A stretch of 64,000 nt of DNA from a virus (IMGVR_UViG_3300033412_000004:1-64000); one strand, 5' to 3'; shown: positions 3,978-63,695, counted from the stretch's first letter. Numbers and translations: made by a program. The notes: generated by a model from the sequence alone, not told the origin.

Positions 3978-6094
3978 GCTCTCGTAGTCCTGCAGCCATC
4001 CTGTTCGACATCAGCGGCAGCACCTTTGCAGTGCCGGGCAATCCGGCTTACGTGTCAGGCACCGTTGGAGTTACGGGCTCGATCGGCGTCACCAATTTTC
4101 CGACCATTCAACGCGTCACCGGCAGCGTCGGCATCGACGGCATCACCTTCCCCGAATCGATCACGGTGACGACGACAGGCTCACTGCCGGTCACTGGTTC
4201 GGTGGAGGTCACCAACAACGTGCCCGTGACAGTCACGTCGCCGGTCAAAGTATACGACACCGGTGTCCAGGCTGTCAGCGGTAGCGTCGCGGTCTACACC
4301 CAGGGCCCACAGGCCGTCTCAGGTAGCGTTACTATCGCCGGGTCGGTAGCAACCTATACGCAGGGTCCTCAGTTGATCTCGGGCACTGTCGCGGTGTCTG
4401 GTTCAGTCGCTGTCTACACCCAGGGTCCTCAAGCTGTAACCGGCACCGTCGGCGTCAACAATTTCCCGGCGACTCAGAACGTCAGCGGCACTGTCTTCGT
4501 CACTACGACAGGTTCCTTCCCGGTGACGGTGCAAGGCATTCCTCAGATCACCGGATCTGTTGGTGTGACGGGTAGCGTTGGGATCACCAACTTCCCGCCC
4601 GTACAGACGATCACCGGGTCTGTTTCTATCACGAACCAAGTGACCTTCACGTCATCGGGTTCTATCGCGGTTACCGGATCTGTCGCGGTGACTGGTTCAG
4701 TCGCTCTGACGGCCGCCGTCAATCTGGTCAGTGGTTCAGTCACTAAACCTTTCTCGGCCGAACCTACGGGCGGCCGCCGAACGATCCTCAGCGGCGCTAC
4801 AGTCACATCTGACGGCTATGCGGTGCTGACGTGGCAGGGCTGGAGCGAATGGTATCTGATCGTCAATGCGTCAGGTTCCATCGGCGGCACGTCTCCCACG
4901 CTGCAGTTCTTTATTGAAGAGGTTGACCCGATCGATCAGACGACCGTCGTTGGTCAGATGATCACCGGTTCGATCATCACCGGCAGCAACCGAGTTGATG
5001 TTTTGCAGTTGGTCGACACCCTGACGGACACCTTCAAGATCCGGTGGCACGTTACTGGAGCCAGTCCATCGTTTGCTGGCGTCAACGCCTCATGGGTGGG
5101 TCACGCAGCGGGCAACGCCATCGAAGGCCAGACCGCGGCCGGCAATCTGCTCGATGAACCGCCTGTTCCCATTGCCGGCATTGACGACAATGGGTTGGTT
5201 CAGTACGTTCAGATCGATGCGTCCGGTCGAATTCGAGTCTCACCCACGACTGCGGGTGTTCGACAATCGATTCGACTAGATGGAGGTCTGGCAGCAGCAA
5301 CGGCTTCCTACCTCGATTACACTGTACCTACGACGAGCTCGTTCTTGGCACAGTACTTCTATGTTGGTGGCGAGGGAGGCACTCTGCGGGGGACGCTGGC
5401 GGGGCACATGACCGGTAGCACGTCGATGATCCTCAATGGTGACATGGAAAATTCGGCATCCGTTCAGGCGTGGGCGGCGGTCGCAGGAACCTTCACCGCT
5501 CCGAGCCCCGACCTGTCAACTGTCCAGGCATACACGGGTACAGGTTCATTTCGTTGGATCTACGCCAGTAGTGCGACGGCACTGCAACGCCGACAGACGT
5601 TCAACCCGACGATTGATCTCTCCGGTTATCGCTACCTGCGTGTTCGTTTCTTCAATGACAGTACTACGGGTGTGACACGAACGATCAGCCTGGTCCTTGC
5701 GTCAGGTACGCCCACGCGTACTTACTCACTGTCGGCACTCTTGCCGAGCTCGGTGCTACAGTCAGGTAGTTGGACAACGTTGACGGCGGACCTAGAGAAT
5801 CCGACATCAACGACCGGCACGGGATTTGACTTGACGTCAATCTCTACGATCACTTTGCAGATGCAAGACAGCGCCAACAAGACGGGCACCGTCTATTGGG
5901 ATACCGTGCGCCAAGAAGACCAGTTTGACATTCGACACCGCCTCTACAGCTCCAACGGTAACACAGTCACCATCAATCTAGATCCTTCTGAGTTCTTTGC
6001 CGCAGGTTCACAGGTCTACGTAATCGTAAAGAACCTCGGTAACGTAAAGGTCAATGCTACCGCCATTGCTGGCGGCACCCTGGAGGATGCATGA
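3974..6094 (+). CDS. Tail fibre/adhesin-like protein with V-T/S-G-S-V repeats and a C-terminal carbohydrate-binding-like domain
   Basis: The N-terminal third is built of VTGSV/VSGSV/TNFP repeats. The C-terminal NGDMEN...VYWDTVR pattern resembles a CBM-type jelly roll. Confidence 0.55.
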   Translation: MSSRSPAAILFDISGSTFAVPGNPAYVSGTVGVTGSIGVTNFPTIQRVTGSVGIDGITFPESITVTTTGSLPVTGSVEVTNNVPVTVTSPVKVYDTGVQAVSGSVAVYTQGPQAVSGSVTIAGSVATYTQGPQLISGTVAVSGSVAVYTQGPQAVTGTVGVNNFPATQNVSGTVFVTTTGSFPVTVQGIPQITGSVGVTGSVGITNFPPVQTITGSVSITNQVTFTSSGSIAVTGSVAVTGSVALTAAVNLVSGSVTKPFSAEPTGGRRTILSGATVTSDGYAVLTWQGWSEWYLIVNASGSIGGTSPTLQFFIEEVDPIDQTTVVGQMITGSIITGSNRVDVLQLVDTLTDTFKIRWHVTGASPSFAGVNASWVGHAAGNAIEGQTAAGNLLDEPPVPIAGIDDNGLVQYVQIDASGRIRVSPTTAGVRQSIRLDGGLAAATASYLDYTVPTTSSFLAQYFYVGGEGGTLRGTLAGHMTGSTSMILNGDMENSASVQAWAAVAGTFTAPSPDLSTVQAYTGTGSFRWIYASSATALQRRQTFNPTIDLSGYRYLRVRFFNDSTTGVTRTISLVLASGTPTRTYSLSALLPSSVLQSGSWTTLTADLENPTSTTGTGFDLTSISTITLQMQDSANKTGTVYWDTVRQEDQFDIRHRLYSSNGNTVTINLDPSEFFAAGSQVYVIVKNLGNVKVNATAIAGGTLEDA
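4040..4740 (+). repeat. Imperfect coding repeats (VTGSVxVTNFP / AVSGSVAVYTQGPQ)
   Basis: Repeats are visible in the translation; GTCTACACCCAGGG recurs at ~4292 and ~4412. Confidence 0.7.
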
Positions 6095-35408: not shown

Positions 35409-38309
35409 ATGGCAGGTGAGTTCAAGACACTTGAGTCAATCTTCGAGATGCTATCGCCTGCCGACTTGGCAGGCAAGAAGAAGCTCAACCTGGGTGGCTC
35501 CGCAGACTCGTACAACGATCAGTTTGCGCTGCTAGCCAAGATCTTGGAGAACGATGGTCGTGGCGTACTGACCACGGCGGAGTTGAAGTCTGCGCTGGAA
35601 GAGGTCCAGACGAAAGGCAGCGCCGTCACTTCCAAGGAACTCAACCTGTTCTTTGACTTCTACAGCACCCAAGGCTTCCTGAGCTTCGCCGATCCGACGA
35701 TCAAGAAGGCGATCGGCAAGGACGGTAAGCCAAAGGACGTCTCCGATTTTCAGGAGATGGTCGGCAAAGACCTGAAGCTACCGGACAAGTTCGACGTGAT
35801 GTACATGTTGAGCCGGTCTCCGTTCTTCCACCCGTCTAAGCGGCACACGAAGCGAATTGAGACCTTCCTCAACGCGATGCCGTCGATCGTCATCGCTCAG
35901 ATGTCGCCGTACCTGGAAGTCGAATTTCAGGTCGCCAAGGACTCAAGCGATTACCTCCAGACGACGAGCCAGTTGAAGTTCCTGCTCGGAGCCGAGAAGA
36001 AGGAATCGTTGGAAGGCGCCAACAAGGCGATGTTGGAAGGCCAGTCCAACAAGAAGGACGACAAGGAATACGACTTCTTCGGCATGGAGATGTTCACGTC
36101 ACCGCAGACGCTGGTCAATCCCACGCCCAACGTCTCGCCAGGTTCATCGGACACCTTCATCGGTCGGTACACTGACGTCCTCGATCCGTTCCGGCCTTTT
36201 GCGTCTCTTGAGAGCGCAACGGTGACGGTGACTCCGGCCGTCGGCATGTACACCTACAAGAAGGCGCACTTGGTGATCAAGCTGCACGATCGGTCGCGCC
36301 TCGCTGAAATCAGTGACCTCATTCGCCCCAAGTCGTACTCCAATGTGACGGTCTGGTTGACGTATGGCTGGCGCGCGCCCCGGACGAACACCGATCCCGG
36401 CATGCTGACGTACACCGACTTCATCAACAACAACATGTTGATGCGGGAAGCGTACGGCGTCATCAACTCAAGCTTCAGCTTTGATCAGGTGGGACAGGTC
36501 ACCATCAACCTCGAGCTCTACACCAAAGGCGTGTCAGAGATGAGGACGATGAAAATCACTGACACTTTTGGCGATGCAGCGAAGACCGTCGAAGACATCA
36601 AGAAGTTGGCGGAAGACATTTCGCTCTATCGCAAGAAGCTGAAGTTGGACCCGCCCGAAGGCATCAACAAGGAGATTCGCGCGTACCAAGTGCTCGACGC
36701 TGCACAGGTCGGTGAGTTCCCCGACATGAAGCCGTCTGACGTCCATGCAGCCGTTGCTTCGTTGAGGTCAGCATTCTCCAAGAAGGGACAGCCCGATCCT
36801 GATGAGGTGAAGAAGCTGTTTGACTCGCTGGACAAGCTCTACGCATCCGACCAGAGCAAGACGAAGTTCAGCCTCAAGGATCGGATTGAGAATCAGGCGA
36901 CGGCGACCGTCAAGAAGAAGTTCGATGAGATGTTGACGGGTCCTGACCCGTTCCTGCCGTCGGAAGAGAAGAATGCCGGCGCTCAGAACGGCAAGGACCT
37001 GGCGACTGACCTCGCCAACGAGATCAAGAAGTACAACCAGGCTCCTCTCACCACTGTCAAGGCCTTCAAGCCCAAGGCGGTGTCGTTCGGCAAGTTGTTC
37101 AGCGTCTTTGCGACCGATTGCGTGGCCCACGCTGGCATCGTCGATGAGCTGCAGGTCTTCTTCTACGCGCTCAACAGCCAGTGCGGTCCAGTCAGCAGTC
37201 ACAGCATCGCTGAATTTCCGATCGACATGTCGACGTTCCTCGACCAGTACCGAGACCACATCGTCAAGCGCGGCGGTGAGCGCATCACCCTCGAGGAGTT
37301 CTTGGGCCTGGTCATCAACGCTCAGGTCCTCGACAACCGCGCCATCGGCTACGGCCTGCGCAGCGTCTACCAGCCGTACGATCCCAAGAACAAGGATGCT
37401 CAGGTCAAGAAGGACGGCGAGAAGGAGCTGGAGAACGCTCTCGCGGCGCAGTCCAAGAAGTACGGTGCCTTCAAGAAGCCCGTCATCGAGATGTACATCG
37501 AGACGTCGCACCAGCGTCCTAAGGAGGCGGGCGACTCAGACATCCTGCACGCCTTGGCATACTCAGCCAAGGATGCGACCCTCGTCGTCGATGATGAGTT
37601 GAAAGCCGGCAAGCTCCAACGCATCATGCGCATCCACATTTACGACAAGCAGGTGTCGCCGTCAGTTGCAGCGACTCAACTGCTGCGGTCGACGGGCGGC
37701 GGTGGCTTCCTGCAGGTTCCATCGACGGAGTACGCCAAGCAGTTCGTCAAGAGCGACATGACGGAGCTGCAGCAGTTCTTCGCAGCGATGAACATCGAGG
37801 CCGACACTGATCCCAAGACGGGCAACGTCAGGATGGCGTCGTTCACGACAGCGCGCCAGGTCAAGGACGCAGTGTCGCGTTTGATGCCGACGATCACCTA
37901 CGGCGCCAATGGTACCACTGTCATCTCAGCCAACCTGACATCGAAGGCAGATCCCCTGTTGAGCACCGTCAACATGCTGCGCAGCAACACTGTCAAGAAC
38001 ACCGCGGCGCCCAACGGCTCAGGTGAAGGCGGCATCCCGCTGCGCGTCATCCCGGCGGCGCTGACGATGACGACGTTGGGTTGTCCTTTGGCGACGATGG
38101 CCCAGCAGTACTTCATCGACTTCAACACCGGCACGTCGGTCGACAACCTCTACATCGTCACCGGCCTGACCCACACTTTTGCCGCAGGCAAGTACGAGAC
38201 CCAGTGGACGCTCGGTTACTCCGATGCGTACGGCGTCTTCGAAGGCGCGCCGAACATCCTCGACTACCTGAAGTCGATCTCGTCTGACATTCCCAAGAAG
38301 CCGAAGTAG
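35409..38309 (+). CDS. Baseplate hub-like large protein
   Basis: LTYGW, YGVINSSFSFD, C-terminal GCP..QQYFIDFNTGT..DNLYIVTGLTH..GKYET; position in the module. Confidence 0.58.
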   Translation: MAGEFKTLESIFEMLSPADLAGKKKLNLGGSADSYNDQFALLAKILENDGRGVLTTAELKSALEEVQTKGSAVTSKELNLFFDFYSTQGFLSFADPTIKKAIGKDGKPKDVSDFQEMVGKDLKLPDKFDVMYMLSRSPFFHPSKRHTKRIETFLNAMPSIVIAQMSPYLEVEFQVAKDSSDYLQTTSQLKFLLGAEKKESLEGANKAMLEGQSNKKDDKEYDFFGMEMFTSPQTLVNPTPNVSPGSSDTFIGRYTDVLDPFRPFASLESATVTVTPAVGMYTYKKAHLVIKLHDRSRLAEISDLIRPKSYSNVTVWLTYGWRAPRTNTDPGMLTYTDFINNNMLMREAYGVINSSFSFDQVGQVTINLELYTKGVSEMRTMKITDTFGDAAKTVEDIKKLAEDISLYRKKLKLDPPEGINKEIRAYQVLDAAQVGEFPDMKPSDVHAAVASLRSAFSKKGQPDPDEVKKLFDSLDKLYASDQSKTKFSLKDRIENQATATVKKKFDEMLTGPDPFLPSEEKNAGAQNGKDLATDLANEIKKYNQAPLTTVKAFKPKAVSFGKLFSVFATDCVAHAGIVDELQVFFYALNSQCGPVSSHSIAEFPIDMSTFLDQYRDHIVKRGGERITLEEFLGLVINAQVLDNRAIGYGLRSVYQPYDPKNKDAQVKKDGEKELENALAAQSKKYGAFKKPVIEMYIETSHQRPKEAGDSDILHALAYSAKDATLVVDDELKAGKLQRIMRIHIYDKQVSPSVAATQLLRSTGGGGFLQVPSTEYAKQFVKSDMTELQQFFAAMNIEADTDPKTGNVRMASFTTARQVKDAVSRLMPTITYGANGTTVISANLTSKADPLLSTVNMLRSNTVKNTAAPNGSGEGGIPLRVIPAALTMTTLGCPLATMAQQYFIDFNTGTSVDNLYIVTGLTHTFAAGKYETQWTLGYSDAYGVFEGAPNILDYLKSISSDIPKKPK

Positions 38310-40444: not shown

Positions 40445-40599
40445 CTCAAACCACCGCATGTTCTGCGCAGTTGGTAGGGAATTGTACGTTCACGCCACCG
40501 TGAACTTTGCATAGGCTTCGCAGTACGTTGCTAGAACTGCGCAGGTGCAGTTCAATGACGCGTCCTGCAAGGTAAGGAAAAAGGAAAGAGGAAAGCAAA

Positions 40600-51311: not shown

Positions 51312-52238
51312 ATGGCATACGGAGCGAGAGTTCTTGCGGACAGCGTTGCGCTGCACAGGTGGCCCAATCGCGTGGAGCAAGGTACGCGGCTGACGACGAT
51401 CGAGGTGACGTTCCCTCGGATCGTATTGGCGGAATTCAACACGCACCGCGTCTTCAGTCGCAACAGCGCCTCCAGTCGGGCGATTCCCGTCGAGAAGCGC
51501 ATCGCCGCCGTCGAAGCTGATCCCTTCGTTCCGGAGGTGTTTGGCAAGAATCAAAAGGGCATGCAGGCCAGTGAGAACCTCAGTGAAGAGGACGCTGACA
51601 TGGCCCGACAGGAATGGATGTTGGCGTGCAAGGACGCCGTCTATCGCGCCAGGCAGTTGGCGGCCCGCGGCGTCCACAAGCAATTGGCCAACCGCCTGAT
51701 CGAACCGTTCTGTTGGCACACTGTCATCGTCACCGCGACCGAGTGGGAAAACTTCTTCGCGCTGCGGTGTCACCCCGACGCTCAACCCGAAATTCGGGTC
51801 GCCGCCGAGTGGATGCAGGCCGTCTACGACCAGAGCGTCCCCCAGGAGCTCGACGAGGACATGTGGCACCTGCCGCTGCTCCCCGACGCGCCGCAGCTGC
51901 TGAGCGAAGGCTACTCGATGGCCGACCTGTGCCGCATCAGCGTCGGTCGCTGCGCTCGGGTGTCGTACCTGACCCACGACGGTCGTCGAGATCCGTCGGC
52001 CGACCTGGACCTAGCGGCGAAGCTGCAGTATTCAGGTCACATGAGCCCGTTTGAACACGTGGCACGTCCCATGAACCGCAGCGAGTGCGAGTACAAGTAC
52101 GGCACTCACGGCGAATTCGTCGGAGACAACATGACGCCCCAGAAGAACTTCTGTGGCAACTTCAAGGGATGGATTCAGCTACGAAAAGAGCTGCCCCATG
52201 AGGACAACTTCCGCGAGGCGATGCTGGCGAGGGATTGA
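51312..52238 (+). CDS. thyX: FAD-dependent thymidylate synthase (phage ThyX-like)
   Basis: AEFNTHRVFSRNSASSRAIP, HKQLANRLIEPF, FFALRCHPDAQPEI, GHMSPFEH. Confidence 0.85.
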   Translation: MAYGARVLADSVALHRWPNRVEQGTRLTTIEVTFPRIVLAEFNTHRVFSRNSASSRAIPVEKRIAAVEADPFVPEVFGKNQKGMQASENLSEEDADMARQEWMLACKDAVYRARQLAARGVHKQLANRLIEPFCWHTVIVTATEWENFFALRCHPDAQPEIRVAAEWMQAVYDQSVPQELDEDMWHLPLLPDAPQLLSEGYSMADLCRISVGRCARVSYLTHDGRRDPSADLDLAAKLQYSGHMSPFEHVARPMNRSECEYKYGTHGEFVGDNMTPQKNFCGNFKGWIQLRKELPHEDNFREAMLARD

Positions 52239-60977: not shown

Positions 60978-61246
60978 TCTACTCAGAATTCCAAGTCGGA
61001 CAGAAGTTCAGGTGTGGCAGCAAGGTCTGGATGTGCACTGACAAGGGCACACGCATCATCACCGCGATCTGCTTGACGGTGTGTCGCACCAATGACTGGG
61101 CGCGGAACTTGGATGAAGACATCCAGGAACGTGCCTGGGAACGCAAGACGCCAGAAGTTGATCCTTCATGGCTGAAGGGACCACCCTATGCGTTGGCTGA
61201 ACACGTGTTCGACGAAAACGACCAGAAAGGGTGCGAATCACTGTGA
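60974..61246 (+). CDS. Hypothetical protein
   Basis: MIYSEFQVGQKF..WMCTDKGTR..GPPYALAEHVFDE. Confidence 0.55.
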   Translation: MIYSEFQVGQKFRCGSKVWMCTDKGTRIITAICLTVCRTNDWARNLDEDIQERAWERKTPEVDPSWLKGPPYALAEHVFDENDQKGCESL

Positions 61247-61809
61247 AACGACGAAGAATTTTGCTTGACTGTGACGGCGTCATCGCCGACTTCTGCACTG
61301 CGTGCTTCAACCTCATCGAGGAGCACACGGGCGATCGACACACTCACGATGAAGTGACTCACTGGGACTTGTTCACCATCGTGGGCAAGGGTCACCTGAA
61401 GCCGCTGATGAAAGAGACGGCGGCCAAGTCGGGTTGGTGCATCAGTTTCCCGATGTACCCGGGTTCACAGGAGGCGGTGAAGAAGCTCGAGGAGTACGGC
61501 GAAGTCGTCGTCGTCACCTCGCCCATGACGACGCCGTTCTGGGCCTATGAGCGGACCGTCTGGCTCGAGCAGCACTTCGGCATCCCGAAGCCGCGCATCG
61601 TCCACACTGAAGGCAAGCAGTACGTCAAGGGTGACGTCCTGATCGACGACGCTGATGAGAACTGCCTCAAGTGGCACAAGGAGTACCCGGAAGCGCTGAC
61701 GCTGTTGTGGGACGCTCCCTACAACCGCGAGGCCGATCTGGCGGGCACCGGCATCATCCGCGTCAAAGGCTGGGACGAGGTCTTTGCGCTCCTGGAGAAG
61801 GGCACGTGA
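61231..61809 (+). CDS. 5'(3')-deoxyribonucleotidase (HAD, NT5C-like)
   Basis: LLDCDGVIADF, VVTSP, WLEQHF, DVLIDD, PYN. Confidence 0.85.
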   Translation: MRITVKRRRILLDCDGVIADFCTACFNLIEEHTGDRHTHDEVTHWDLFTIVGKGHLKPLMKETAAKSGWCISFPMYPGSQEAVKKLEEYGEVVVVTSPMTTPFWAYERTVWLEQHFGIPKPRIVHTEGKQYVKGDVLIDDADENCLKWHKEYPEALTLLWDAPYNREADLAGTGIIRVKGWDEVFALLEKGT

Positions 61810-61976
61810 TCGAAAAGCTGACTCTCACCGCTGACATCCTGATCTTCGCCTGGTTGGTCGGCACCTGGTTCTACGAAGGACACCACAAGAAGTGCAAGGT
61901 CACGGTGACGTGTCCACACTGCGGCGAGGAATCGGAACAAGCGTGCTTGGCTGACCACCGGCACGACGAGACTTGA
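61806..61976 (+). CDS. Small membrane-anchored Zn-ribbon protein
   Basis: GTGA overlap, TM helix, CPHCG. Confidence 0.45.
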   Translation: MIEKLTLTADILIFAWLVGTWFYEGHHKKCKVTVTCPHCGEESEQACLADHRHDET

Positions 61977-62148
61977 TCGGTGAGTGCAAGGTGGCATGCA
62001 TGACACCTGACGAAAGGGTGAGTACACCAGAAGGGTGCTTCCGAACGAAGCGGTAAAACAGTCGTAACCCTTCAAGGCGGCGGTGGTGCAAGCCGTGGAC
62101 GACCGCAAACGACAAGCACGCGGGGATAACAGGCCCGTACCGATCGAG
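61972..62148 (+). ncRNA. Candidate structured non-coding RNA
   Basis: 10-bp closing stem CTTGATCGGT/ACCGATCGAG with at least five internal stems and a possible pseudoknot; no credible ORF. Strand is inferred from G-U pairs and context. Confidence 0.6.
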
Positions 62149-62170
62149 GTTGACCATGAGAGAGACGAAG

Positions 62171-62485
62171 ATGGGAATTCGCCAGTACAACTACCACACC
62201 TGGTCGAAGTACATGGTGCGCGAGCCCAAGGACATGCCCAAAGGCAGCCACTACGCGGCGGTGCTGTTCGGCACCCGCACCGAATGGACACCGGCGTACG
62301 ATCGCCACGATAGCGACTCTTCATGTTCGGTTCCAGAGATCACATATTTCGCCTTCTACTCCTTGGAGGAGCTCGAGACGTGGGTCGCCGAGGCAGCCCA
62401 GGACAAGAAGCAGTTCTTCTTCTACCACGTGCCCAAATTGGGCGAAGCTACCATCAAAGTCAGTGTACACACGGAGTTGAAATGA
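62171..62485 (+). CDS. Hypothetical protein
   Basis: Coupled to pyrE by an ATGA-type overlap. Confidence 0.55.
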   Translation: MGIRQYNYHTWSKYMVREPKDMPKGSHYAAVLFGTRTEWTPAYDRHDSDSSCSVPEITYFAFYSLEELETWVAEAAQDKKQFFFYHVPKLGEATIKVSVHTELK

Positions 62486-63012
62486 AGTCAGCGCTCGATT
62501 TCCTTCGCCAAAAGTCAGTCCTCCATGCACCGCCCGGCAAGCCTTTCATCCTAAAGTCGGGTGCCGAGTCGATGACGTACATCGACGTTCGCCTGACGGC
62601 ACTGTCGTCCGACGGACTCCACGCGGTGGCCGAGGCGCTGTACGAACGCTTGGCGGGCATGAAGATCAATGCCAACCTCGTCGCTGGCGTCGCTCTGGGC
62701 GGTTGTCCCCTGGCGACGGGCGTATCGCTGATGTCGGGCCTGGACGCGCTGTACGTCCGGCCTGAAGCAAAGGACCACGGCACTGGCAAATTGGTCGAGG
62801 GTGCGTTTCACCCAGGCGACCGCGTGGTGCTGCTCGAGGACGTCATCACCTCAGGCGGATCAACATTGAAGGCCATTGCTGCGCTGCGGTCAGCGGGTCT
62901 CACCGTCGCCGGCGTCATTGCCGTCCTCGACCGAGAGCAAGGCGGCGCCGGACCCATCCAACAGGAGTGCCCGTTCACGGCGCTGTTCACGTTGAAGGAG
63001 CTACTCGCATGA
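62482..63012 (+). CDS. pyrE: Orotate phosphoribosyltransferase
   Basis: FILKSGAES..YIDVR, R.EAKDHGT, VLLEDVITSGGS, VLDRE. Confidence 0.92.
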   Translation: MKSALDFLRQKSVLHAPPGKPFILKSGAESMTYIDVRLTALSSDGLHAVAEALYERLAGMKINANLVAGVALGGCPLATGVSLMSGLDALYVRPEAKDHGTGKLVEGAFHPGDRVVLLEDVITSGGSTLKAIAALRSAGLTVAGVIAVLDREQGGAGPIQQECPFTALFTLKELLA

Positions 63013-63695
63013 ACAACCCGATCTGCTTTGCCCTTGACGGCATGGGCGCCACGGCGGCCCAGTACCACGTCGACATGCTCGAGGAACACGTCGGCGCCTT
63101 CAAGGTGGGCCTCGAACTCTTCATCCGGTCGGGCAAGCTGCCTGCCACCCAACGTCCCATCGTCCTCGACCTGAAGCTGCACGACATCCCGGAGACAGTC
63201 GCCGGCGCGGTCCGAGCAGGTGGCGACCTGGGCGCCAAGTACATGACCCTCCACATCCAACAGCGAGAAACGTTGGAGAAGGCGGTGCAGGCCGCTGAGC
63301 CCTATGACATCACGCTGTTGGGCGTCACGGTGCTGACGTCGATGACCCGAGATGACTTCAAGGACCTTCGTTTCCAGGACGGAGCGTTCGACGACGTCCG
63401 CAGCCGCGTTCACAACCTGGCGCGCTTTGCCGTCGCCCGGTGCGGGTTGCGAGGCCTGGTGTGCTCGCCGCAGGAGGTCGAATTCCTGCGAATGAACTTC
63501 ACCGACGAGGAGCAGCCTTTCCTGTTGGTGCCCGGCATCCGACCTGCGGGTTCGGCGCTCAATGATCAGAAGCGAGTCGGCACTCCGGCACAGGCGATGA
63601 AGGACGGCGCCAACCTGCTCGTCATCGGTCGGCCGATCCGAGACGCCAATGACCCGGTCCAGGCCGCAAAGGACATCCTCGCTGAGATAGCGTAG
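63009..63695 (+). CDS. pyrF: Orotidine-5'-phosphate decarboxylase
   Basis: ALD, FKVGLEL, DLKLHDIPETV, VTVLTS, VPGIRP, DQKRV, VIGRPI. Confidence 0.95.
   Translation: MNNPICFALDGMGATAAQYHVDMLEEHVGAFKVGLELFIRSGKLPATQRPIVLDLKLHDIPETVAGAVRAGGDLGAKYMTLHIQQRETLEKAVQAAEPYDITLLGVTVLTSMTRDDFKDLRFQDGAFDDVRSRVHNLARFAVARCGLRGLVCSPQEVEFLRMNFTDEEQPFLLVPGIRPAGSALNDQKRVGTPAQAMKDGANLLVIGRPIRDANDPVQAAKDILAEIA

Follow-up and report, generated by a model that had tools for sequence, protein, structure and literature searches.

Locus and gene content

We analyzed a 64,000-nucleotide (nt) stretch of viral DNA (IMGVR_UViG_3300033412_000004:1-64000; the window), in which a segment of the plus strand at 61972-62148 holds a multi-stem RNA just ahead of pyrE- and pyrF-like genes. 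An initial annotation, made from the sequence alone, had proposed a novel riboswitch, ribozyme, or trans-acting RNA at this site. We find that the RNA is real, conserved, and structured, with all three roles still candidates. The window spans the leading 64 kb of an IMG/VR virus record of 91.6 kb (estimated completeness, 25%), and its DNA is contained in soil and rhizosphere metagenomes. Because a 357,674-nt contig encodes a protein identical to that of the 109-amino-acid (aa) open reading frame (ORF) following the RNA, we regard the window as a fragment of a jumbo phage (G+C, 59%).

The genes around the RNA all lie on the plus strand. Upstream, an NT5C-type 5'-nucleotidase gene (61231-61809; Pfam PF06941, 1.2e-22) is followed by a small 56-aa ORF (61806-61976), whose TGA stop (61974-61976) falls within the 5' strand of the outermost helix of the RNA, P1. 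The intergenic gap holding the RNA (61977-62155) separates this ORF from the 109-aa ORF (62156-62485), the first downstream gene. Next come genes for a PyrE-like phosphoribosyltransferase (62482-63012; Pfam PF00156, 8e-08) and for the orotidine monophosphate decarboxylase PyrF (62967-63695; Pfam PF00215, 7.7e-41). A rhizosphere relative (run X3) carries a 191-base insertion at 61800-61807, between the NT5C gene and the small ORF.

The 109-aa protein matched no Pfam or PHROG family, and every structural neighbor in the Atlas had a TM score below 0.5. Its homologs are 46 to 85% identical and have the N terminus MR..K in common, which fixes the start codon of the ORF. The gene is conserved in jumbo-phage contigs, with invariant YNYH.W, FFF, and K.G near the C terminus. 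Read from the sequence, its translation start consists of a Shine-Dalgarno (SD) sequence, GAGG (62146-62149, plus strand), a 6-nt spacer, and the ATG at 62156-62158.

Folding and coding potential

The 177-nt stretch at 61972-62148 (plus strand) has a minimum free energy of -65 kcal/mol. Relative to dinucleotide shuffles, its z score is -2.55 to -2.98, and that of the minus strand, which folds less well, is -1.75. The gap is free of third-position GC periodicity, and all three sense frames are interrupted by stops in five of the six family sequences described below, the exception being the metagenomic locus L038. ARAGORN found no tRNA in the window gap or in six homologous loci, and neither a sigma-70-like promoter nor a simple terminator was detected in the window gap. 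The initial annotation had named noncovarying homologs, a folding energy typical of shuffles, and a coding function as observations that would speak against an RNA. What we found is that the homologs covary, that the folding energy of the 177-nt stretch lies below that of its shuffles, and that the stretch is not coding.

Homologs in phages that share few genes

To find relatives of the RNA, we scanned IMG/VR for an exact word from the 3' hairpin (CGGGGATAACAGGCCCG) and ran covariance searches with R1, a single-sequence model of the window RNA. The scan yielded four loci with similarity along the entire element. One, L014, belongs to a complete phage of 94 kb that has terminal repeats; the others, L015, L017, and L018, come from a group of 69-kb phages. 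An 18-mer scanned against Joint Genome Institute (JGI) metagenomes added L035 and L038, along with duplicates of L035. R1 scored L035 at 51.0 bits, L014 at 49.6 bits, and L015, L017, and L018 at 34.7 to 35.1 bits (E values, 1e-7 to 1e-12). The remaining exact-seed loci in the three collections scored at most 19 bits, with alignments confined to the seed. The exception was L038, a true homolog that reached a low 17.4 bits because of its large insertions and that was aligned by hand.

Each genome carries one copy of the RNA (cmsearch of full genomes). Another multi-stem RNA in the window, at 40453-40599 ahead of a gene for a gp32-like single-stranded DNA-binding protein, gave no match to R1 and is a different element. 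Scanning the 18-mer through 185,579 prokaryote species genomes returned nine matches, none of them real, and blastn found no match in GenBank phages for the RNA region of any of the five lineages.

Other routes to homologs were unproductive. Among IMG/VR loci, a 15-mer (GGGGATAACAGGCCC) gave 11 additional loci, all chance matches in coding DNA; the word GGTAAAACAGTNGTAACC gave six, none real; and GATAAAAACTCNCGACAGC recovered only three loci that were already known. A gapped pattern combining helix H2 and its neighboring loop hit 35 loci, 32 of which were chance matches in AT-rich coding DNA. Following synteny, we inspected eight loci with PyrE-like relatives and three with relatives of the 109-aa gene (L002, L011, and L012); by nhmmer and covariance model, none had the RNA, and none had a comparable gap. 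A 460-nt segment 3' of the RNA in L038 was considered as a second structured RNA and dismissed (folding z = -0.71).

Covariation and the strand that folds

In a model-fitted alignment of five sequences, 97% of cells were standard pairs, compared with 77% when partners were shuffled among sequences and 29 to 43% when partners were slid by one to three columns; 27 of its 48 pairs had changed on both sides. A hand alignment of six sequences contained 257 canonical cells among 258 helix cells, with compensatory change at 33 of 41 aligned pair positions. These alignments were fitted to the structure and represent five lineages. RNAalifold, run unaided, predicted P2 and H1 to H5, with 23 of 36 pairs compensatory. 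Every helix except H5 varies in sequence among lineages yet stays paired, and eight of the nine helices show compensatory changes. The element is a conserved RNA structure supported by covariation, as would be expected of a riboswitch aptamer.

A soil relative offers a comparison at shorter range. It differs at 3 positions in the 92 nt at 62069-62160, versus 14 in 85 nt within the NT5C segment, and the downstream coding sequence is no longer alignable at 80%, although its starting motif is the same. Judging from these differences, selection appears to preserve the RNA in this relative.

On the sense strand, the hand alignment of six sequences includes 11 G-U cells and a single mismatch. Since those G-U cells would be A-C mismatches on the other strand, the gene-strand transcript is the molecule that folds. 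The RNA is co-oriented with its flanking genes in all five lineages.

These data also bear on the proposal that the conserved feature is a site in the DNA (an origin, a recombination site, or a protein-binding site) or merely chance complementarity in a GC-rich spacer. The location in replication modules and the invariant DNA sequence of H5 would suit such a site, and the folding-energy z score is not significant in four of the six sequences. Eight of the nine helices have compensatory changes, and G-U pairs occur on the sense strand alone, which is not what a DNA site or chance would leave; the chance matches to the exact seed fail to extend on the covariance model. We therefore hold this explanation to be very improbable.

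Architecture of the element

The fold comprises nine helices. P1 leads into a three-way junction with H5 and P2, and P2 leads into a five-way junction carrying H1 to H4. P2 starts 0 to 2 nt after P1, except that an extra small hairpin intervenes in L035 and L038; on the 3' side, the P2 strand abuts H5, which in turn abuts the P1 strand. All features below are on the plus strand.

P1 pairs CUUGAUCGGU (61972-61981) with ACCGAUCGAG (62139-62148) over 10 bp, one of them G-U. Every lineage has P1, in unrelated sequence (CUUGAACG/CGUUCAAG, GGUGGG/CCCACC, UGGGU/ACCCA, and GAG/CUC). P2 joins GUGC (61984-61987) to GCAC (62116-62119), and all four of its pairs show compensatory changes between lineages. 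H1 (61989-62008) consists of AGGUG, a 10-nt loop, and CACCU; its five pairs are all compensatory in the model-fitted alignment, and its counterparts include AGGAGG/CCUCCU in L014 and UCGGGC/GCCCGA in L035. H2 (62017-62028, GGUG-AGUA-CACC; stem 62017-20/62025-28) has compensatory changes at three of four pairs and is replaced in homologs by a CUGCG, UGCG, or UCCG stem with an AAnnRA hexaloop.

H3 (62030-62073) has an outer stem (62030-36/62067-73), compensatory at seven of seven pairs, and an inner stem (62037-41/62047-51). The 3' side of its internal loop is A rich and conserved at 15 to 18 nt: GGUAAAACAGUCGUA in the window (62052-62066) and GGUAAAACAGUGGUA, CGAUAAAAACUCkCGACA, or AACGAAGAACACGCGAAA in homologs. 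The AAG that follows H3 is conserved and unpaired. H4 (62077-62106) consists of a covarying outer stem (62077-80/62103-06), an inner stem (62084-87/62092-95) with a GCAA loop (62088-91), and a 3' bulge; four of the six sequences have a GNRA tetraloop at the tip (GCAA, GUAA, GAAA, and GAAA). From H4, the A-rich joining strand J4/2 (AAACGACAA, 62107-62115, containing ACGAC) leads to P2. It begins with AAA or AAG in four lineages, and in L014 AAA comes after AUCGC.

H5 (62120-62138) is a 5-bp stem (62120-24/62134-38), GCGGG and CCCGU, around the 9-nt loop GAUAACAGG. Its 18 of 18 bases are identical across lineages apart from the closing pair, which is G-U or G-C (GCGGG-GAUAACAGG-CCCGY), an invariance that is partly a matter of ascertainment because H5 was the search seed. 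Several partial likenesses of H5 were set aside as coincidences: its loop shares 11 nt with 23S rRNA 2445-2456 or the I-SceI site, with no supporting context; it shares 10 nt with the repeat of type I-E clustered regularly interspaced short palindromic repeats (CRISPR), with no upstream CCCCGC; and it matches a DnaA box at seven of nine positions, again with no supporting context.

The sequence, coordinates, and pairings listed in the initial annotation are all present in the DNA. Homologs confirm, by covariation, P1, GTGC/GCAC, GAAGGGT/ACCCTTC with its enclosed GCTTC/GAAGC, and GCGG/CCGC, and they bear out the CGGG/CCCG hairpin, extending it to the 5 bp of H5. The proposed pairing of CACCT (62004-08) with GGGTG (62016-20) is an alternative confined to the window; homologs support separate hairpins instead (61989-93/62004-08 and 62017-20/62025-28). 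An inner stem in H4 stands, but its register as first drawn does not stand alone: the data fit either CGGT/GCCG or UGGU/GCCG with a GCAA tetraloop. The suggested GTCGT/ACGAC pseudoknot is not a family-wide feature. Only L035 has a counterpart in the same place (UGGU/AUCA); complementarity involves other bases in L015 and L014, and L038 has none.

Relation to known RNA families

We compared the window and four homologous loci with Rfam 15 (4227 models, including every self-cleaving ribozyme class, the PyrR site, GOLLD, ROOL, and HEARO), using cmscan at the gathering score and also, at E <= 10, on 701 nt and on 101 nt centered on H5. No family matched, in line with the initial annotation, which could assign the RNA to none. 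Subthreshold matches were on the wrong strand or unrelated (CyVA-1, E = 0.3 on the minus strand; mir-619; rli47). Full-text literature searches found no description of this RNA family. On the evidence of these sequences, the element represents a previously uncatalogued phage RNA family of 165 to 225 nt that appears to be cotranscribed with its flanking genes. Structured cis-regulatory or orphan RNAs are a known kind of element, and we place this family among them as a new class.

Self-cleaving ribozymes of several classes are frequent in phage genomes, and the element has some of the features expected of a self-cleaving or other processing ribozyme that cuts a polycistronic transcript between replication genes: it is intercistronic in phage operons, has a complex conserved core, and contains invariant nucleotides. 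However, it matches no ribozyme family in Rfam 15, it exceeds most self-cleaving classes in size and helix count, and its sequence gives no hint of a cleavage site. A ribozyme is accordingly improbable in our estimation.

The initial annotation had drawn attention to the P3 hairpin of ykkC-family RNAs and to phosphoribosyl pyrophosphate (PRPP), the substrate of PyrE. This raises the idea of a divergent ykkC-family member (guanidine-I, PRPP, or ppGpp) that senses PRPP for the pyrE operon. As a lead, H5 (CGGGGAUAACAGGCCCG) resembles P3 in being a short 3' hairpin, rich in G+C, whose A-rich loop has a similar sequence. Like ykkC riboswitches, it lies upstream of metabolic genes, with the link between PRPP and PyrE limited to the window. 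The resemblance does not hold beyond this. No ykkC, PRPP, or ppGpp model matched (RF00442 and subtype-2 PRPP/ppGpp, up to E = 10 and even on the 101 nt around H5), and the global architecture differs, being a P1-closed three-way junction plus a five-way junction. The hallmarks of ykkC are a two-domain architecture and a conserved unpaired ACGR just 5' of the P3 hairpin. In this family, the four bases before H5 are GCAC, GCAA, or CUGC; they are paired as the 3' strand of P2, a covarying helix, and ACGR is not conserved.

The functional link to PyrE and PRPP fares no better. Homologs of the RNA precede recA, a gene for a 420-aa protein, or modules with a uracil-DNA glycosylase (UDG)-PolA fusion, and not pyr or PRPP-using genes, while relatives of the pyrE and 109-aa genes occur without the RNA. 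Because the neighboring genes differ among lineages, the link is not a general one. We judge membership in the ykkC family to be as remote as the DNA-level explanation above.

Gene neighborhoods of the carrier phages

The RNA always lies between codirectional genes. In L014, a gene for a 417-aa zinc-ribbon protein precedes the RNA, and genes for RecA and a UvrD-type helicase follow it. L035 has a family-B polymerase, two small ORFs, the RNA, a homologous zinc-ribbon protein (420 aa), and an MT-A70-type methylase. In L015 and L018, the RNA comes after a gene for a Sak4-like annealing protein, two small ORFs, and a terminator-like hairpin and is followed by genes for an HNH endonuclease and the UDG-PolA fusion; in L038, a homolog of a 199-aa protein of L015 precedes the RNA, which is followed by more ORFs and UDG-PolA. 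The common theme is DNA replication, recombination, and nucleotide supply, and not pyrimidine synthesis as such.

By BLASTP, the only proteins common to the three sequenced carrier phages are ThyX, RecA, dCMP deaminase, a methyltransferase, and a peptidase. With almost no proteins shared among its carriers, the RNA is far more widely shared than the genomic background.

Some further observations concern these neighborhoods. ThyX is the sole protein present in all three sequenced carriers (window, 51312-52238; G001, 78914-79663; G004, 37492-38241); the G001 and G004 proteins are 58% identical in genomes that are otherwise unrelated. The zinc-ribbon protein (about 420 aa, with the ribbon at its C terminus; L019:1716-2969 and L035:424-1689, both on the minus strand; 35% identical) had no match in Pfam, PHROG, PDB sequences, or GenBank phages (tblastn). 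In L015, at 4100-4150 (plus strand) and about 30 nt past the RNA, there is a second H5-like hairpin, AGG-UAUAAACAGG-CCU. After it come a hairpin like a T arm (CGGAG-UUCGAUC-CUCUG) and a pairing like that of an acceptor stem (GGGGAGU/GCUCUCC). The segment resembles a tRNA-like fragment or minihelix, in which ARAGORN found no tRNA. In L015:4079-5804 (plus strand), a homing endonuclease gene of the HNH_3 type stands between a duplicated N-terminal fragment of UDG-PolA (..DPKSLGARCNECPLRGSKPVPP..) on its 5' side and the complete UDG-PolA gene on its 3' side, an arrangement that looks like a free-standing homing-endonuclease insertion with target duplication.

Position of P1 relative to the flanking genes

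In four lineages, the stop of the upstream ORF is inside the 5' strand of P1 or at most 12 nt before it. The 3' strand of P1 meets the downstream gene in two ways. In the window, the last three P1 pairs contain three of the four bases of the SD sequence GAGG, and the ATG lies 6 bases past the SD sequence and 7 nt past P1. L014 has a matching layout before recA (CGUUCAAG|GUGAUCA|AUG), with a 3-nt overlap between P1 and the SD sequence. In L035 and L038, U tracts (U9 and UAUUUUUU) begin 2 nt past P1 in DNA of 58 to 61% GC, and P1 stacked on H5 makes a helix of 10 to 11 bp beside the U tract, the geometry of an intrinsic terminator. Only 21 nt, containing AAGGAG, separate the U tract of L035 from the ATG, so that its downstream gene could be expressed by read-through only. 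In L015, a 5-bp hairpin competes with a 3-bp P1, and no clear output is evident. No alternative (antiterminator) pairing conserved across lineages was found.

Candidate functions

Different expression platforms, such as SD overlap and terminators, on one conserved core typify riboswitch classes. We rank a riboswitch-like, cis-acting OFF switch with a putative effector first because two platforms occur on one core and both would be repressive when P1 forms, and we favor it tentatively, at somewhat less than an even chance. In outline, the core would fold, presumably stabilized by an effector at the conserved junctions, and P1 would close; here we infer a conditional P1, an effector, and its being a small molecule. 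In the window and L014, a closed P1 would take in the first bases of the SD sequence and lower translation of the next gene. In L035 and L038, the P1/H5 helix, 2 bases before the U tract, would terminate transcription. Our guess, taken from the gene neighborhoods, is that the effector is a nucleotide-related metabolite. A fuller version, possible but doubtful, is a phage-specific class, with no kinship to known aptamers, that reads a nucleotide-derived signal during infection and shuts off genes for replication, recombination, and nucleotide synthesis. In some phages P1, stacked on H5, would itself serve as the terminator stem, an unusual design. The signal could then be the deoxynucleoside triphosphate or pyrimidine pool, an alarmone, or a second messenger of host immunity.

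The lysine and flavin mononucleotide (FMN) riboswitches, with five-way and six-way junctions, respectively, are closed by a P1 whose 3' strand feeds an SD sequence or terminator. The OFF switch proposed here would work similarly, with P1 closing a junction core made of conserved unpaired bases and loop contacts and with different platforms on one core. The element nevertheless shows no sequence or model similarity to those riboswitches. An additional three-way junction, bearing an invariant hairpin, separates its P1 from its P2; P1 itself rather than a separate hairpin stands before the U tract in two lineages; and the element has been found only in phage or metagenome DNA.

A number of observations weigh against the OFF switch. 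At 10 bp in the window and 8 bp in L014, P1 is stable and exceeds the usual length of a ligand-gated P1, which suggests constitutive folding. Its overlap with the SD sequence is limited to the three weakest, terminal pairs. In L015, P1 has just 3 bp and the next ATG is 87 nt away. A long-range P1 would be unusual as a terminator stem. No single regulated function is evident, because the genes after the RNA vary (the 109-aa ORF with pyrE/pyrF, recA, the 420-aa gene, and PolA modules) and the 420-aa gene precedes the RNA in L014 but follows it in L035. The family amounts to five lineages, four of them found via the exact H5 seed; folding-energy z scores are significant for the window and L014 only, among six sequences; and the only contig from an RNA library spans 61700-61879, outside the element.

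Paired 5' and 3' ends are common in stable RNAs, and the ends of this element are paired in a strong P1 in the window and L014. The RNA could thus be a stable noncoding RNA that stands alone, either acting in trans or forming the RNA part of a ribonucleoprotein for phage DNA metabolism or counterdefense. It would be freed by processing of the operon transcript or ended at the P1/U-tract terminator, with paired ends protecting it from exonucleases. U tracts right after P1 in L035 and L038, an H5 stem and loop that are identical in all members (as fits recognition by a protein), a single copy per genome, and module-like occurrence on either side of the 420-aa gene in phages sharing almost no genes are all consistent with this. 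Its ornate junctions and GNRA loop also recall GOLLD and ROOL, orphan ornate RNAs associated with phages (PMC5737381). Like them, the element is phage borne, elaborately structured, and patchily distributed among unrelated phages; at 165 to 225 nt versus about 500 to 800 nt, it is three to four times smaller, matches neither model, and sits tightly between ORFs with an SD sequence or U tract rather than near tRNA clusters. Against a stand-alone transcript, nothing resembling a promoter is present, and space for one is lacking, since the upstream ORF ends 0 to 12 nt before P1 in four lineages. Moreover, the window, L014, and L015 have no terminator after the RNA, and the SD sequence of the next gene in L035 comes right after the U tract, a better match to attenuation than to the end of a gene. 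We consider a stand-alone RNA rather unlikely, but it is the alternative to which we give most weight.

The cis layout that favors the OFF switch would serve equally for a leader or attenuator with a protein effector, namely, a regulator from phage or host, a repressor of the RegA, gp32, or gp43 kind, or a terminating ribosome. T4-type phages control replication genes via translational repressors. The invariant H5 resembles a protein-binding site, and with the upstream stop in or near the 5' strand of P1 in four lineages, a ribosome terminating there would open P1. The T4 gene 32 pseudoknot, gene 43 hairpin, and RegA sites likewise lie shortly before the start codons of genes for replication and recombination, where they repress translation. 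Each of those operators is a single short motif to which the product of the downstream gene binds, and known phage translational operators in general are short hairpins or pseudoknots, unlike a junction RNA of nine helices whose downstream genes vary by lineage. BLASTP, furthermore, found no candidate RNA-binding protein common to the carrier phages. A protein-controlled leader is, in our view, clearly unlikely, though less so than a ribozyme.

Significance

This is a well-defined family: eight of its nine helices covary, and it is carried by five lineages of soil and environmental phages that are otherwise unrelated. To our knowledge, very few classes of riboswitch or ornate RNA are phage only, and we know of none that controls phage replication or recombination genes. 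A stand-alone RNA would add a new, compact orphan RNA to those of the phage replication module. Were the element a riboswitch instead, the ligand would reveal what the phage monitors to time DNA synthesis, and a P1 that doubles as a terminator stem would be a new logic for an expression platform; should both the ligand and the terminator design prove true, the family would be a distinctly new, phage-restricted riboswitch class.

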